A stretch of 6,896 nucleotides of DNA from a virus (taxonomy: Duplodnaviria > Heunggongvirae > Uroviricota > Caudoviricetes): IMG/VR virus record IMGVR_UViG_3300007747_000052; one strand, given 5' to 3'. The notes beneath the pieces were generated by a model. The model was not told where the DNA came from, did no database searches, and worked only from the letters and a program-made list of their open reading frames with translations. Below are positions 278 to 6,896 of the stretch, one piece after another. Position 1 is the stretch's first letter, and each line of letters begins with the position of its first letter. The translations under genes and the position numbers were made by a program.

Positions 278-923
278 TTAACCTGCGGCGCTGACAGCCA
301 CCGCAGCCACTGCCACAAAATCGCCGTCAGAAGTCATGCCCACAATGCTGACACTGCCCTGCTTCACGCCTTTCACCGTGGCCACAAGCCCGTTCAGGGT
401 CACCGTGGCAGTCCGTGGATCTGTCGAATGCACACTGATCGCTTTGTCACTGGCTCCGTCAGGTTTTACTGTAAAGGTCAGCGTGGTGGTTGCTCCCACT
501 TTTACACTGGCAGATGCCGGTGCCACCGTCAGCCCGGTAACGCTCACTGTTTCAGTGCCTTCCTCTGCCAGATACGGACGCCCCACACCGCTGATTTTCA
601 CGGTGCGGGTCATCACGTCTTTTGAGGCAATGGTTTTACCCAGTGAGCTCAGCCAGCCACGGAAAACATCAACAGTGCCGTTGGGATATTTGAACGGATT
701 TCTGCCCCTGGGTTGTCGTTTTCCAGTCTGCATCTTCATCATCGAGATAAGTGTCATCTTCTGCATCAGCGGTCATTTCGCCAGGTTGCAGATCCTTCAC
801 CATCGCAAGACGCAGCCAGTCAGTGTCCGATAAAGGGTTCGCAAACGCATCGCCCTTGCCGGTGTACATCCAGAACGTCGTTCCCGCACCTTTCGTTTTT
901 GCCAGTGGATTTGGTGTGGTCAT
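278..923 (-). pseudogene. Major tail protein, lambda gpV-like, with Ig-like (Big_2-type) C-terminal domain; reading frame is broken near 690..700
   Basis: AGGAGG then 5 nt then ATG at 923..921, immediately after the gpU-like stop (937..935). The N-terminal frame gives [76 protein letters not shown], then runs into a stop at 669..671. The homologous continuation [40 protein letters not shown]... plus an Ig-like tail is in a different frame (ORF 278..766). Both parts resemble lambda V as I remember it ([30 protein letters not shown]). Confidence 0.75.
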
Positions 924-934
924 TGCCACCTCCT

Positions 935-1336
935 TTAATTCGTGTACGTGATCTGGTACGTGATTTCCGCCATCGCCCAGGTGGCCATCTCATTATCACG
1001 TTGATAGTTAAAACCGAGAGGGATCAGGGTGTCGATGAGTCCGGAAAGTGCCGGTATATCATTCAGAGCCGGGAAAATGGTGCTCTCCATCCACATATCC
1101 AGCTCTGAATCCGGTGCCTGTGCCCGGATGAAGACAGCAATATGCAGAACAGCCTGCCAGTCATCTTCATCCGTCATTTTTCCGGTGTACTGAGCATCAC
1201 TCAGCCACACCGCCACGGCAGGCAGTTCCTGCGCATCAATAAATGCCGGAAGCCCGTCAAAAAACGTGGCGCTGTCTCCACACTGTTCCCGAAGGCGTGC
1301 CAGTACGGCCTGGCGGATTTGTGTATGTCGGTTCAT
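935..1336 (-). CDS. Tail terminator protein, lambda gpU-like
   Basis: 133-aa product from ATG 1336..1334 ([15 protein letters not shown]...[31 protein letters not shown]...[42 protein letters not shown]...ITYQITYTN). It is colinear with lambda U as recalled (ATFFDG, PAVAV, PDSELD.WMES, DIPALS, TY.ITY). The ATG overlaps the gpZ-like stop as ATGA. The ORF track starts 4 codons earlier at 1348, which I consider less likely. Confidence 0.85.
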
Positions 1337-1876
1337 CGGGTCAGCCATAACCTCAGTTGTTGTTTCAGTGCATACCCCAGCTGTTTCGGCATTTCCGCAG
1401 CAATGATGCGGTCGCGGGCATCTTCAAATGCCTGTGTCAGCGGTCCGGACAGCGGGATTTTCACTTTTTTCTTGGCCTGCCCTGATGGTCATGCCCTGTT
1501 GCAAAACGCGCTTCAGGAAGACGCCTCAGAACATGCCAGCGGCCATTCGCCAGTTGCTGAACAAATGCCCCCCGGAAAAAGTATTTTCCCACTCTCAGTC
1601 CTTCACCAGCACGCCGCCGTGTTGTGTTCAGTTTGATGGCGGGCAGATTGCCCCGGTTAACGCGGATCCTGGCCGTCATTTTTCCTGACGGACTGGCTTT
1701 AAACACCCGGACACGCTGACGTACCAGTTTCACGCAACGGTATTCCCGGCAACCTGCCGGGTGGCAACCGAGACCGCTTTCTGTGCCACACGGTTTATCG
1801 CCCATGCGCTGGCCTGTGGCACCATACGGGTATCAAGGCTGTTCAGATTGCGGATGGCATTCTCAAGCCCCTTCAT
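1333..1876 (-). pseudogene. Tail completion / minor tail protein, lambda gpZ-like; reading frame is interrupted twice (or is recoded)
   Basis: RBS AGAGGTG then ATG at 1876..1874. Frame A gives MKGLENAIRNLNSLDTRMVPQASAWAINRVAQKAVSVATRQVAGNTVA then TGA at 1732..1730. The homologous continuation VKLVRQRVRVFKASPSGKMTARIRVNRGNLPAIKLN...RGAFVQQLANGRWHVLRRL... is in frame B (ORF 1461..1805) and stops at 1463..1461. The C-terminal part [45 protein letters not shown] is in frame C, ending at TGA 1335..1333. All three segments match consecutive parts of lambda Z as recalled (IKVNRG.LP.IKL, GAF.QQL.NGRWHV, VKIP...PL..AF, LGYAL..QL). Confidence 0.65.
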
Positions 1877-1887
1877 CCCACACCTCT

Positions 1888-2163
1888 TTACTCAATAAAG
1901 ATCATTGGCTTACCGTTAAAGCGTTCATGCCGTGTGACCGTCCAATGTTGTCCGTCATAAACAACGCGATCCCCGCGCCGTGGGCGGTATCCCGAAGAAA
2001 ACACCACCAGAGAGACCGCAGGTCCGGACAGAGCATTCAGCTCTGCCAGTGTTTCTCCCGGGATCACAGTCATATCGACATCATTAATCGAGGCTGTCTT
2101 TCCCATCTTTCTGACCGTGATCGCATCCATACGCGCTGCCAGCCGGGAAAAGGGATCAGACAT
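1888..2163 (-). CDS. Head-tail joining protein, lambda gpFII-like
   Basis: 91-aa ORF MSDPFSRLAARMDAITVRKMGKTASI...RRGDRVVYDGQHWTVTRHERFNGKPMIFIE. It resembles lambda FII as recalled (AA..R.D..I....G.SA.I; RRGD...W.V) and sits in the FII position between the capsid genes and Z. The start ATG 2163..2161 overlaps the upstream gene's TGA (2158..2156) by 8 nt (ATGTCTGA). Confidence 0.7.
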   Translation of the reverse strand: MSDPFSRLAARMDAITVRKMGKTASINDVDMTVIPGETLAELNALSGPAVSLVVFSSGYRPRRGDRVVYDGQHWTVTRHERFNGKPMIFIE

Positions 2164-2565: not shown

Positions 2566-4419
2566 TTACGCCGTACATTTCACCAGACCGCGGTGATCAA
2601 CTGGCGCGACACCGGCGTCAATACGCACTTTCGTTGTCACGCCATCCACACTGAAGCCCTCCATCTGATCAATATATGGCGTATCCACACCGTTGAGATA
2701 AGCCACTTCAATCGTATCGGAGCCTTTTGACGCAGCCAGGTAGAAGGTGGTCTGGCTGTTATCATCAAGACGAGGCTCTGCAATAACGGTCGCAAAATCT
2801 TTCACCGGGTTAATAATACCGGCGTTAATGTCAGCCCCCTTGACACTTGAGGAGCGAATGACCTGGTTAGCAACAGACTCCATCGCCGTCGGTACCAGTA
2901 CGAACGCAGGACGAATATTCAGATGACGCTCCCCCTCTTTCTGAACGCGCATCAACTGGCGGGCTTTATCCAGCGATGCCACGTCCATTGCAGCGCTCTC
3001 CAGTACGTTTGCATGTTTCGCTTTATCGAACAGACTTACATTATCTGTGGAGATTTTCGGGTTAGACGTCAGAATGGCATAAACCAGATCGGCAATAGTG
3101 GATTTCGCCGCACGGCCCAGTTTCATCGGGACATCGGTCAGCATATTCAAATCATCATTGATAATGGCCTGACGGGTGATACTGAACAGCTCGCCATAGG
3201 TCGCCAGTGCAATAGTGGCCTGTTTATCTCCGGTGGTGACGTATTTATATTCCGCCCCTTCACGCACCTGACGCAGAGCACTGAAGCCCCCCATACCCAC
3301 ACGATGGGCAATTTTAAAATCAGACAACTGACCTTTCCGCGTCCACTGTTCATAGGTTTCAGGGGCATCTTCCCAGCCCTGCAGAATGGCTTTGTTCGCA
3401 ACATCCAGCAGAATATTACCGAAGTCAGACGTACTGTGTGTGAACGCCGCACCGACCATCTGCATCGGGTTATAACTGGAAACCCCAATACCCCGTTCAG
3501 TCAGTGACATACGGGCATATTCACGCAGAGTCATCCCGTTGTAGACATTATCACGTTCGGTTTTTTCAAATCCGGCACGCGCCATCAGCGCCTGGCGGAT
3601 CCCGTCCCCCACAAAATTACCGTTACCGGCATAAATATGAGCCGGNNNNNNNNNNNNNCCGCCAAACATGGCAAACAGATCATTAATACCGTTTACACGC
3701 GCTTTTTGCTCTGCCAGTACCTGCGCACGGATACTGTTTTCATCCACCACTGGTGCTGCTGCCTGCACTGGCGTCCGGGGTGCTGCTGGTTCATCATCCG
3801 GTACGCGTGGAGCACTGTTGCGTGGCGGAGTAATCATGTTTCGAATGGATTCCGGCATCTTTTTAAATTCCTCTGTACGTTTTGACTGAATACATGCCAT
3901 TGCCTTAACGGCTGGCGTTACCTGATCAGCAAATCCATGAGCCAGACATTCGGCTCCGGACATCCAGGTCTCATCCGCCAGCATGGCAGCAATTTCATCG
4001 GTGGTTTTCCCGGTTTTCTGTGCATAAGCGGGTAACAGAACCGCCTCAACCTTATCGAGCAGGTCGGCATAGGTGCGCATGTCCTCCGCATCACCGCCCG
4101 TAAAGCCAAATGGTTTATGAATCATCATGAAGGTGTTTTCCGGCATAATGACCGGGTTTCCCACCATCGCAATGACCGACGCCATTGACGCCGCCACACC
4201 GTCGACATAAACGGTAATGGACGCACCATGTGTTTTCAGCGCATTAAAAATGGCGATGCCTTCAAAGACATCGCCACCCGGTGAATTGATATGGAGATTA
4301 ATGTGGGTGATATCGCCCAGTGCATTCAGATCACTGATAAACTGCTTCGCTGTAACCCCCCAGAAACCAATCTCGTCATAAATATAAATATCCGCGTCAC
4401 TCTGGTGACCAGCCTGCAT
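2566..4419 (-). CDS. Prohead protease (ClpP family) fused in frame to a scaffold-like linker and a major capsid protein domain
   Basis: 617-codon reading frame from ATG 4419..4417, 13 nt after the portal stop. N-terminal ~190 aa: IYIYDEIGFWGV...HINSPGGDVFEGIAIFNALK...VDGVAASMASVIAMVG...MMIHKPFGFTGG, i.e. ClpP-like Ser and His motifs. Then a Pro/Ala-rich linker (PPRNSAPRVPDDEPAAPRTPVQAAAPVV). The C-terminal ~360 aa (NGMTLREYARMSLTERGIGVSS...GADINAGIINPVKDFATVIAEPRLD...) looks to me like an HK97-type capsid protein, but that call is pattern recognition only. The frame across the N gap at 3646..3658 is assumed, not observed. The ORF-track extension to 4680 overlaps the portal gene and has no protease similarity. 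Confidence 0.75.
   Translation of the reverse strand: MQAGHQSDADIYIYDEIGFWGVTAKQFISDLNALGDITHINLHINSPGGDVFEGIAIFNALKTHGASITVYVDGVAASMASVIAMVGNPVIMPENTFMMIHKPFGFTGGDAEDMRTYADLLDKVEAVLLPAYAQKTGKTTDEIAAMLADETWMSGAECLAHGFADQVTPAVKAMACIQSKRTEEFKKMPESIRNMITPPRNSAPRVPDDEPAAPRTPVQAAAPVVDENSIRAQVLAEQKARVNGINDLFAMFGXXXXXPAHIYAGNGNFVGDGIRQALMARAGFEKTERDNVYNGMTLREYARMSLTERGIGVSSYNPMQMVGAAFTHSTSDFGNILLDVANKAILQGWEDAPETYEQWTRKGQLSDFKIAHRVGMGGFSALRQVREGAEYKYVTTGDKQATIALATYGELFSITRQAIINDDLNMLTDVPMKLGRAAKSTIADLVYAILTSNPKISTDNVSLFDKAKHANVLESAAMDVASLDKARQLMRVQKEGERHLNIRPAFVLVPTAMESVANQVIRSSSVKGADINAGIINPVKDFATVIAEPRLDDNSQTTFYLAASKGSDTIEVAYLNGVDTPYIDQMEGFSVDGVTTKVRIDAGVAPVDHRGLVKCTA
3646..3658. other. Assembly gap (13 N) inside the protease-capsid ORF
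   Basis: Run of 13 n characters in the sequence. True length and content are unknown, and frame continuity across it cannot be verified. Confidence 0.99.
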
Positions 4420-4432
4420 CCTGAACCAGGAA

Positions 4433-5941
4433 TTATTCTTCGGACTGGTCGTCGGTGTGCTGCGGCTCCTGTCGTTTCGTTGCGGCACTGCTGCCTCCTT
4501 TATCACTGGCCGGATCGGTATCAAATACCAGATCCAGCTTGCGGTTTTCATCAATTTCGGCCTTGCGCCGACGTTTGACATCATCCGGATTACGACCACC
4601 AGCACGTACCCAGTCTGATTCTGTCGCCGCTCCACCACGAATCTGGATTTTCCAGGCCTCAGCCTCCTTAACAGGGTCAATCCACGGCATCACTGGTCCG
4701 GAATACACCGCGGTATACAGTGAAGAACGGTCAAGATCACGGGGTAGCCTGATAACACCGGATGCCACAGCCTGTTTCAGCCATGCACGATACATCGGGC
4801 GGGTGACGGCACCAATAAACCAGTCCTGCAGGATCAGGTAGCCATCAGTAGACTCAACCAGTTCCTGACGCTGGGCGCTGTAAGTGCCGTTATAGTTGCG
4901 TGCCGTACTGGAAAAACTCAGACGACTGCCCGCCGCCACGGCACGCAACTGACCATTACGAAAAGTTTCAAGATTAGGATTGGGGCGATCCGACTTCACC
5001 ATTCCAATTTCTTCGCCGGGTTTCAGATCGTCGTAAATAATGCCTGGCTGAATGGTAAGCTCGCGTTCCTTATCCTTGCTGCCATTACCATCCGGTTCAT
5101 AGCTCTGCCCGTCGCCTTTCCGGATGTACATCCCCAGAGCAGCGGCGATCCTTGCTGCAGTCAGCTCAGAATCTTCATACTCTTTCAGGGCACTGAGGCG
5201 GATCAGCACACCGGACAACAAAGACGTCCCGCGCATCTGGTGCAGACGGCGAACAAATTTAAGATGCAGCATTCGCTCTGCATCCACTTCTTTGGTTTCC
5301 ATCTGCCGTCCGGATACGGGACGGCTTTTATACACCAGATATTTTTCGGGACGCCCCCAGTCATCAACAAACACGCCCTGATTCAGCCTGTTGCTCTCAT
5401 CACTGGTCATGGGAATAAAGTCTGGCTCGAGCGCCTCCAGCCAGAAATGAACATCGGCAGAAGGCGTCAGGCTGTTTATGCGCCCGGAAACCATCTGGGC
5501 AAACACCTCACCATCGCGCAGCCAGGTACGCAGCATCAGACGTTCCAGCATCGGACGGGTAAACTGCCCGGTGACTTCCGGGCTGACAGACCATTCACTC
5601 CATCGGGTGCGAATCTCCGCTGCCAGATCACGGGCAATGGCCCCATTGCGTAATACCGGATGTGGCTCGACAATAATCCCGTTTTTCCCCACCACCCGTT
5701 CTTCCAGCTTGTCAAATACACCAATAACCAGATCGTGGTTGTTATCAAGGTAACGGGCCTGCTCACGTAACGACACGGCCCCGTACTGGCTTAACTGGTC
5801 GGCAGTTCGGTTTTCCCGCCGGGCTTTGTGTGTCCGCGTCGTTTTTACGGCCTCATAAGCCTGGATCACCGCACGGGAACGCAGCCTTGCCGCTTTCCAT
5901 CCTGGTGAAAAAACGCCAATCACATCATCAATAATTGCCAT
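4433..5941 (-). CDS. Portal protein, lambda gpB-like
   Basis: 502-aa product from ATG 5941..5939 (MAIIDDVIGVFSPGWKAARLRSRA...), stop TAA at 4435..4433. It sits in the portal position between the W-like gene and the protease/capsid gene, with size and overall composition similar to lambda B. The ATG overlaps the gpW-like TGA as ATGA; GAGG lies 6 nt upstream. The ORF-track start at 6013 would overlap the W-like gene by 70 nt. Confidence 0.85.
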   Translation of the reverse strand: MAIIDDVIGVFSPGWKAARLRSRAVIQAYEAVKTTRTHKARRENRTADQLSQYGAVSLREQARYLDNNHDLVIGVFDKLEERVVGKNGIIVEPHPVLRNGAIARDLAAEIRTRWSEWSVSPEVTGQFTRPMLERLMLRTWLRDGEVFAQMVSGRINSLTPSADVHFWLEALEPDFIPMTSDESNRLNQGVFVDDWGRPEKYLVYKSRPVSGRQMETKEVDAERMLHLKFVRRLHQMRGTSLLSGVLIRLSALKEYEDSELTAARIAAALGMYIRKGDGQSYEPDGNGSKDKERELTIQPGIIYDDLKPGEEIGMVKSDRPNPNLETFRNGQLRAVAAGSRLSFSSTARNYNGTYSAQRQELVESTDGYLILQDWFIGAVTRPMYRAWLKQAVASGVIRLPRDLDRSSLYTAVYSGPVMPWIDPVKEAEAWKIQIRGGAATESDWVRAGGRNPDDVKRRRKAEIDENRKLDLVFDTDPASDKGGSSAATKRQEPQHTDDQSEE

Positions 5942-6153
5942 CAGAACCTCGCCAGCCGGTACCCGGGATGCCCCCGTCGTCGTGTAATCAGAGCCGCAAG
6001 GCGGCGCTCCCACTCCTGCCGTCCCTGCCGGATCTCAGATAAGTTTTCCATGGTCATCTGCTGACCATTAAAGGTGACGGATTTTCCGTCCAGCACCGCC
6101 ATTTCAGCTTCCGTATAACGCTGAATCATGGCTTCAATATCATTCTGATTCAT
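5941..6153 (-). CDS. Head completion / head-tail joining protein, lambda gpW-like
   Basis: 70-aa product MNQNDIEAMIQRYTEAEMAVLDGKSVTFNGQQMTMENLSEIRQGRQEWERRLAALITRRRGHPGYRLARF. Size, basic C-terminus and position between terminase and portal match lambda W. GGAGG lies 6 nt upstream of ATG 6153..6151 (the ATG at 6159 abuts the RBS, so is disfavoured). The ATG overlaps the terminase TGA (6152..6150). Confidence 0.7.
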   Translation of the reverse strand: MNQNDIEAMIQRYTEAEMAVLDGKSVTFNGQQMTMENLSEIRQGRQEWERRLAALITRRRGHPGYRLARF

Positions 6154-6896
6154 AACCATCCTCCGGAAGTCAGCCAGGGGTTAACATCGTCAGTTACTGT
6201 TTTCTTCCGTTTTTGTTTTTTAACAGGCGTGGATACCGGTTCCGGTGAGGGTGACGGTTCGGTACTGTCCGGGACACACTCCAGCCAGGTTTCCCGGCTC
6301 GCCCACTCCGGTGCATCCGGCCAGCGGATCTTTTCGTATCCATGCAGAATGACCAGAGCCTCGGCATACACCATCAGGTCAAAGGCTTCGTTGGCACCGC
6401 GACCCGGCTTACTCCATTTCCCGTCACTGCTCCGCTCTTCATACGTCAGTTCGTCGTAAAACCAGCTCCCCAGCCAGTCAGGGAAATGCACATAGCCTGG
6501 ACCTGGCGAGTCACGCCATAACGCGTTATTCACCCGGTCTTTCAGGGCATCCGTCTGAAGAAGCCAGAGCGGCACATCACCTGCGGCCTGCGCCCGTCGG
6601 CCCGTTCGTCCGGTGTTATCAGGGAATGTACGGGTGATCAGTTTTGCGCGCCGGATGCTGTCGCCCTTAAACAGGTAAATACGTTTACCAAGGCCATCAC
6701 GACGGCAACGACGCCAGAATTTATAGGCATTATCAGTGACCCCGTCTTCACCGCCGGAGTCCACCGCCATTGCCATCAGTCGCATTTGTTGAGAAGGATC
6801 GGAGGCCAGCGGCCAGCTTTTATGAAAAACATCCGTCAGCAGGACATCCCAGTCTTCCGGATAGCTGGCCGGATCAATTCGCTGGCTCTCCCCGTC
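6150..6896 (-). CDS. Terminase large subunit, lambda gpA-like; C-terminal part only, the 5' end lies beyond position 6896
   Basis: Minus-strand frame is open from the window edge to TGA at 6152..6150 (DGESQRIDPASYPEDWDVLLTDVFHKSWPLASDPSQQMRLMAMAVDSGGEDGVTDNAYKFWRRCRR...GKRIYLFKGDS...YVHFPDWLGSWFYDELTYEE...KPGRGANEAFDLMVYAEAL...). It is directly upstream of the W-like and portal genes. The motifs resemble the lambda gpA C-terminal region as recalled. Confidence 0.75.
   Translation of the reverse strand, partial: DGESQRIDPASYPEDWDVLLTDVFHKSWPLASDPSQQMRLMAMAVDSGGEDGVTDNAYKFWRRCRRDGLGKRIYLFKGDSIRRAKLITRTFPDNTGRTGRRAQAAGDVPLWLLQTDALKDRVNNALWRDSPGPGYVHFPDWLGSWFYDELTYEERSSDGKWSKPGRGANEAFDLMVYAEALVILHGYEKIRWPDAPEWASRETWLECVPDSTEPSPSPEPVSTPVKKQKRKKTVTDDVNPWLTSGGWL

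Follow-up and report, generated by a model that had tools for sequence, protein, structure and literature searches.

The closest described systems in which a slippery A_AAA_AAG heptamer has a stop codon close by are E. coli dnaX (tau/gamma) and IS911. In the case of dnaX, -1 frameshifting needs the heptamer, an upstream Shine-Dalgarno-like AGGGAG and a downstream hairpin (PMC5389563). By chance, 68 E. coli genes contain a bare A AAA AAG, and frameshifting that is not stimulated is normally rare (PMC9307594). The gene that concerns us here belongs with lambda gpZ, that is, with the tail-completion proteins of the Pfam family Minor_tail_Z (PF06763), which lie in the gene order head-closure, Z, U, V, G, T. 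Frameshifted pseudogenes of defective prophages are a further point of comparison: prophage decay by deletion is common, and E. coli often carries defective prophages in which small deletions are real.

The window, that is, the whole stretch of DNA analysed here (6,896 nt), appears to be an entire small, stand-alone prophage contig of ~6.9 kb. Its minus strand is a lambdoid late operon that begins with the end of the terminase, a small W-like gene, the portal and a ClpP-protease/major-capsid fusion, and continues through DUF2190, a Gifsy-2-family head-closure gene, Z, U, V and the start of G, of which just the first 217 nt lie in the window. The order is that of lambda, and the placement of the gpZ-like gene between the head-closure gene and U/V is the synteny expected of its family. 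The sequence-only reading had drawn attention to a slippery heptamer followed directly by a stop codon within this gene, and a readout of the minus strand (CAT CAG GGC AGG CCA AGA AAA AAG TGA AAA TCC CGC around the heptamer) confirms both.

1464..1470, minus strand: A_AAA_AAG heptamer, in the frame of ORF 1461..1805
1461..1463, minus strand: TGA stop, natively out of frame (GTA G/TG A/AA) and in frame here through a 19-nt loss

The run consists of six A's (1470..1465) with a G at 1464, and the heptamer conforms to the slippery pattern X_XXY_YYZ in the zero frame of ORF 1461..1805 on the minus strand, which terminates in ...GRPRKK. The piece that a -1 slip would append is ORF 1333..1464 on the same strand. 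Likeness to dnaX and IS911 extends to the identity of the heptamer and the proximity of the stop. However, the window site, unlike dnaX, has no significant hairpin: folding of the 84 nt 3' of the heptamer does not exceed that of shuffles (z = -1.12; 27 of 200 shuffles equal or better). The Shine-Dalgarno-like element upstream is just a weak AGGG at a spacing of 9 nt, native to the gene and found in intact copies too. The absence of stimulators that the sequence-only reading had reported holds on both sides of the motif. Neither is AAAAAAG enriched in the window, where three copies on both strands compare with 0.97 expected, and at least three were found in 16 of 200 shuffles.

We compared the gpZ-like gene with homologues from E. 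coli EC6 and phages PhiR40_1 and Tritos, as well as with the divergent type of mEp460, cdtI, O157:H7 and AR_0081. All aligned homologues are single ORFs of 579-591 nt, and a two-ORF architecture is not conserved. The copy in the window is broken into three reading frames and lacks two blocks.

1333..1876, minus strand: gpZ-like tail-completion gene (Pfam Minor_tail_Z) in three reading frames, 544 nt here against 591 nt (196 aa) in intact relatives
1730..1876, minus strand: gpZ fragment 1, which starts at the true ATG with its Shine-Dalgarno site and runs for 48 aa to TGA 1732..1730, the first three bases past the 28-nt junction
1464..1731, minus strand: gpZ fragment 2, the native-frame middle (KLVRQRV…GRPRKK), reachable solely through a change of frame at junction 1
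1333..1463, minus strand: gpZ fragment 3, the C-terminus (KIPLSGPL…LWLTR, then stop), ending in an ATGA overlap with U
1732..1733, minus strand: junction 1, where 28 nt present in all relatives, GGAGATAACCAAGTGAAAGGGATCCCCC, are absent; 3n+1, with 0 nt of microhomology
1465..1466, minus strand: junction 2, where 19 nt, ATCGTCTTCCTGTGGAGGT or equivalently TCGTCTTCCTGTGGAGGTA, are absent; 3n+1

At junction 2 the EC6-type relatives (EC6, PhiR40_1 and Tritos) read AGA AAA AAT CGT CTT CCT GTG GAG GTA GTG AAA ATC and the mEp460/cdtI/O157 type reads GGC AAA AAT CGT; the stop is absent from either type. The A-run is six A's long in the window and in all EC6-type relatives, and the difference is the 19-nt block, the placement of which is ambiguous by one A. 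Loss of ATCGTCTTCCTGTGGAGGT abuts the native A6 run to GTGAAA and thereby generates A_AAA_AAG with an in-frame TGA. Five or six A's at the start of the heptamer belong to the native run, and the remaining one or two bases derive from sequence beyond the 19-nt gap. The alignment shows the heptamer and its TGA to be the junction scar left by loss of a 19-nt segment from the gpZ gene. Homology resumes in the -1 frame because 19 = 3n+1, which mimics the loss of a single nucleotide.

The same arithmetic makes a single-base homopolymer error, one A lost from a run of seven, look plausible at first sight, since a -1 correction does restore the downstream frame. The relatives, however, also have six A's, followed by 19 nt that are absent from the window, and a miscount of the homopolymer was rejected as the relatives do not differ from the window in the length of the A-run. 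We consider the probability of this explanation negligible. The check that the sequence-only reading had itself suggested, conservation of the A-run and the TGA in relatives, came out against it, with six A's instead of seven and AAT CGT in the place of the TGA. In preferring an indel to recoding it had identified the right class of lesion; what is missing is a 19-nt segment and not a single A.

A slip at the heptamer would indeed lead to the homologous gpZ C-terminus, as had been proposed, without restoring the protein. The trans-frame product reads ...RPRKK-VKIPL against the native ...RPRKNRLPVEVVKVPL, skipping the seven residues N-R-L-P-V-E-V and leaving profile positions 138-148 uncovered. 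Even the divergent mEp460/cdtI/O157 type retains these residues, in the form N-R-[L/Y]-P-[V/I]-[E/D]-V. It is also correct, as had further been proposed, that the C-terminal piece and the U-like gene overlap by ATGA: the ATG lies at 1336..1334 and the TGA at 1335..1333, and the same 4-nt overlap is annotated in relatives.

The assignment to gpZ is borne out by a profile search. The window fragments tile PF06763, covering positions 1-46 (1730..1876), 50-137 (1461..1805) and 149-190 (1333..1464, the C-terminal piece) with scores of 63.3, 70.5 and 41.4 bits against a cut-off of 23.9, and the intact EC6 homologue covers positions 1-190 in a single ORF (E = 8.6e-57). Unlike lambda gpZ and the other members of the family, which would be expected to be a single intact ORF of about 190-196 aa, the window copy is split over three frames and is missing 47 nt in two blocks.

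The second of these blocks, the 28 nt absent at junction 1, had gone unmentioned in the sequence-only reading. The authentic start, ATG 1876, is preceded by AAAGAGGTG. Junction 1 reads GTT GCG TGA, which contains no slippery sequence, and translation from ATG 1876 ends there after 48 residues, at 1732..1730. The heptamer's own ORF opens with 24 out-of-frame residues. The frame of the heptamer cannot be reached from ATG 1876 because the 28-nt loss creates this upstream TGA, and no full-length gpZ product is possible in the window. The origin of the scar was observed directly, as were the second break and the absence of the conserved residues. Both Z losses stop right before a native TGAAA (CTGAAAC and GTGAAAA), so that a TGA arises 0-2 nt from each junction (1730-1733 and 1461-1466), and GTGAAA also occurs inside the missing 28-mer; this coincidence is probably due to chance.

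The alternative that had been left standing beside an indel was a recoding site, that is, a functional or tolerated -1 ribosomal frameshift by which, as at dnaX and IS911, the middle of gpZ would be fused to its C-terminal part. The heptamer is the dnaX slippery sequence, the stop is adjacent on its 3' side, a weak AGGG lies 9 nt upstream, and the -1 frame runs on into a homologous C-terminus. Against this, the heptamer frame is severed from the true start by the 28-nt loss, at a junction that is not slippery. Every homologue is a stop-free single ORF reading A_AAA_AAT, the trans-frame product would be without the conserved NRLPVEV, downstream structure is undetectable, the AGGG is shared with intact genes, and the bare heptamer is found by chance in 68 E. 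coli genes, unstimulated frameshifting being normally rare. Unlike dnaX and IS911, moreover, the window has a zero frame unconnected to a start codon and a motif made by a 19-nt loss. Of what characterizes a dnaX/IS911-type site the window has the heptamer alone; the link to a start, conservation, stimulators and a complete product are all lacking. A programmed, conserved frameshift site is refuted by the comparative data, the lack of downstream structure and the upstream break, and we regard the broader possibility of a functional or tolerated frameshift as very improbable. We are no more inclined to a mixed case, in which a real 19-nt mutation is combined with -1 slippage in vivo on translation from an internal start (e.g. 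ATG 1805) to yield a truncated gpZ-like fusion. Such a fusion could have some residual or dominant-negative activity on tail completion. The heptamer is thus not a genuine recoding feature: it is an accidental by-product in a doubly broken gpZ gene.

The losses in Z have counterparts elsewhere in the window. Aligned over its full length with EC6, the window shows exactly four losses within about 3 kb: 28, 19 and 98 nt, and 118 nt replaced by 13 N.

935..1336, minus strand: U-like tail terminator gene, intact, 402 nt as in relatives
278..923, minus strand: V-like major tail gene, in which 98 nt are lost at junction 694/693, shifting the frame
3646..3658, no strand: run of 13 N where relatives have 118 nt of the ClpP-protease/major-capsid fusion; an incorrectly sized assembler gap

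In the EC6 locus (L004) the four missing segments correspond to positions 3439-3556 (118 nt), 5470-5497 (28 nt), 5765-5783 (19 nt) and 6555-6652 (98 nt); NZ_CP182398.1:4031239-4038383 and PV340560.1 are examples of intact references.

The 98-nt loss splits the V-like gene into two frames, ORFs 669..929 and 278..766. The length of the N-run is off by 105 nt, and the frame of the capsid gene across it appears to be kept by coincidence only. Beyond the four losses, 76 substitutions separate EC6 from the window, and their lengths differ by 1 nt at the intergenic window position 936, where MS6198 needs no gap in a three-way alignment; no 1-nt indels were found inside genes in the full-length alignment with EC6. 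In the three-way comparison 35 substitutions are private to the window, 42 to EC6 and 22 to MS6198, numbers that are upper bounds given that two full-length relatives, EC6 and MS6198, were used. The private codon changes of the window comprise 24 synonymous, 10 nonsynonymous and 0 nonsense, a pattern that, on codon counts, is indicative of purifying selection rather than of a pseudogene in long decay or of reads full of errors. The three junctions without N have 0, 1 and 0 nt of microhomology. No motif is shared among the four missing segments (GATC occurs in just two of the four), and inspection of the full-length EC6 alignment by eye revealed no periodicity in the spacing of the lesions.

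The module is carried by 1,857 of 5,426 complete E. coli genomes, many E. coli genomes having 2-6 copies of it. The Z lesions are shared by none of the 5,426, the best matches all spanning 648 nt against 601 in the window, and by none of 50,697 phage records (best matches again spanning 648 nt). A 100-nt query centred on the junction returned two-piece matches only, spanning 119-120 nt, and no exact copy of the 43-nt junction sequence was found in collections of species-representative genomes, viral sequences and metagenome contigs. Likewise, the frameshifted ORFs 1461..1805, 278..766 and 669..923 have no exact-protein match on record.

The 48-aa fragment behaves differently from those three ORFs: it is on record in exact form in NCBI E. 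coli drafts (EFN5064168.1, EGP3955013.1, EOM7094765.1 and HAJ5382085.1). Among Logan/ENA contigs with the fragment, a contig end explains it in 10 of the 10 listed, and these contigs stop 0-2 nt past the left breakpoint of the window. As a control, N-terminal Z fragments of 44-56 aa were looked up, and every one of them proved frequent in drafts, with 17 contigs for the 44-aa form and ~10 for the 48-aa form. The coincidence of the 48-aa contig ends with the breakpoint is therefore a selection effect of looking up the exact protein; all that it demonstrates is that contigs in public drafts often break in this part of Z. The idea that the gap edges are branch points of a de Bruijn graph was dropped, contig-end truncations being spread over codons 44-56. 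None of the sites that vary among the O157, AR_0081, mEp460 and cdtI variants falls at the edges of the 28-nt gap; for the 19-nt gap, the right edge alone matches the last variable site between EC6-type and mEp460-type genes.

We infer that the losses probably arose as an assembly error in a short-read draft. Related prophages resident in the same cell would collapse in the assembly graph to give a stand-alone prophage contig, and stretches left without support would then be dropped or bridged with a few N. An artefact is favoured because the contig contains an explicit assembler gap, wrongly sized at 13 N against 118 nt, which shows that at least one of the four sites had been left unclosed in assembly, because all four losses, each of at least 19 nt, are packed into 3 kb of otherwise healthy sequence, and because the lesions are confined to a single record, the remaining sequence of which shows no decay. 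The lack of short direct repeats at the junctions (0-1 nt of microhomology) points the same way, as does the late-gene-only content of the contig, typical of collapsed multi-copy prophages (up to 6 copies of the module). In E. coli, deletions that arise spontaneously and independently of RecA are usually flanked by short direct repeats. The window thus resembles draft misjoins in collapsed prophages in being a small stand-alone contig with a wrong-length N-run, microhomology-free losses and a multi-copy module. The 'update contigs' option of CLC Genomics Workbench, as described in its manual, removes regions without mapped reads and joins the flanks, and joining of this kind after removal of unmapped stretches would give exactly this pattern of loss. 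On the other side, N marks just the capsid loss, the other three being seamless joins, and no concrete assembler mechanism could be reconstructed from the sequence.

The four losses may instead be genuine deletions in a defective (cryptic) prophage, with Z hit twice, V once and the capsid lesion hidden by the gap, a possibility that we take seriously while giving it distinctly less than even weight. The 48-aa product is on record with its stop, and hence the deletions stand in the deposited record; capsid genes are fragmented in other assemblies of this prophage family; and modern assemblers rarely drop 19-98 nt silently. As in the frameshifted pseudogenes of defective prophages, the Z losses are of 3n+1 nt, each with a stop immediately after. 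Unlike those pseudogenes, however, the window shows no point-mutational decay, and its lesions are clustered, unique to the record and in one case an N gap. Real deletions would require four independent losses of at least 19 nt in 3 kb with no genic 1-nt indels, no nonsense changes and a synonymous to nonsynonymous ratio of 24:10; one of the lesions would have to coincide with the N gap, the junctions offer just 0-1 nt of microhomology, and the Z lesions recur in none of the complete genomes or phage records searched. If the deletions are real nonetheless, the heptamer and TGA would still be merely a deletion scar, and the lesions in Z and V would be expected to prevent the formation of infectious tails. 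Most probably, the missing 19-nt block was introduced by assembly.

With respect to the capsid genes, the protease-capsid fusion (675 aa) is called in pieces in several independent short-read assemblies of this prophage family (Logan L018, L022, L023, L033 and L034), e.g. as 481+113+79 aa, 481+192 aa or 217+125+233 aa. Either degraded prophage copies circulate, or the gene is error-prone in assemblies.

For annotation, the Z and V genes of this contig are to be treated as disrupted or mis-assembled, and the 48-aa 'phage tail protein' as a fragment; the contig is unsuitable as evidence for recoding in tail-completion genes. It is also a cautionary case: a slippery heptamer, a stop and homology in the -1 frame can all arise from a 3n+1 loss beside a native A-run, and comparison with homologues separates such a scar from recoding at once.

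Several observations concern the neighbouring genes. In the EC6 relative (G and T at 7129-7545 of its locus, L004), gene G lacks the lambda-type G/T heptamer GGGAAAG at its end, the sole copy in that locus lying at 5098, within the head-closure gene. This 91-aa gene upstream of Z (window 1888-2163, minus strand; 5039-5314 in EC6) is a 'DNA breaking-rejoining protein' in RefSeq, whereas it matches Pfam PF13856 (Gifsy-2) and is called a head completion/closure protein in Tritos; the name in RefSeq seems to be a legacy annotation that misleads. The portal and protease-capsid genes overlap by 56 nt in relatives (1156-2664 and 2609-4636 in L004), which is ordinary for the family, and the corresponding minus-strand ORFs of the window, 2566-4680 (protease-capsid) and 4433-6013 (portal), reach upstream to earlier alternative starts.
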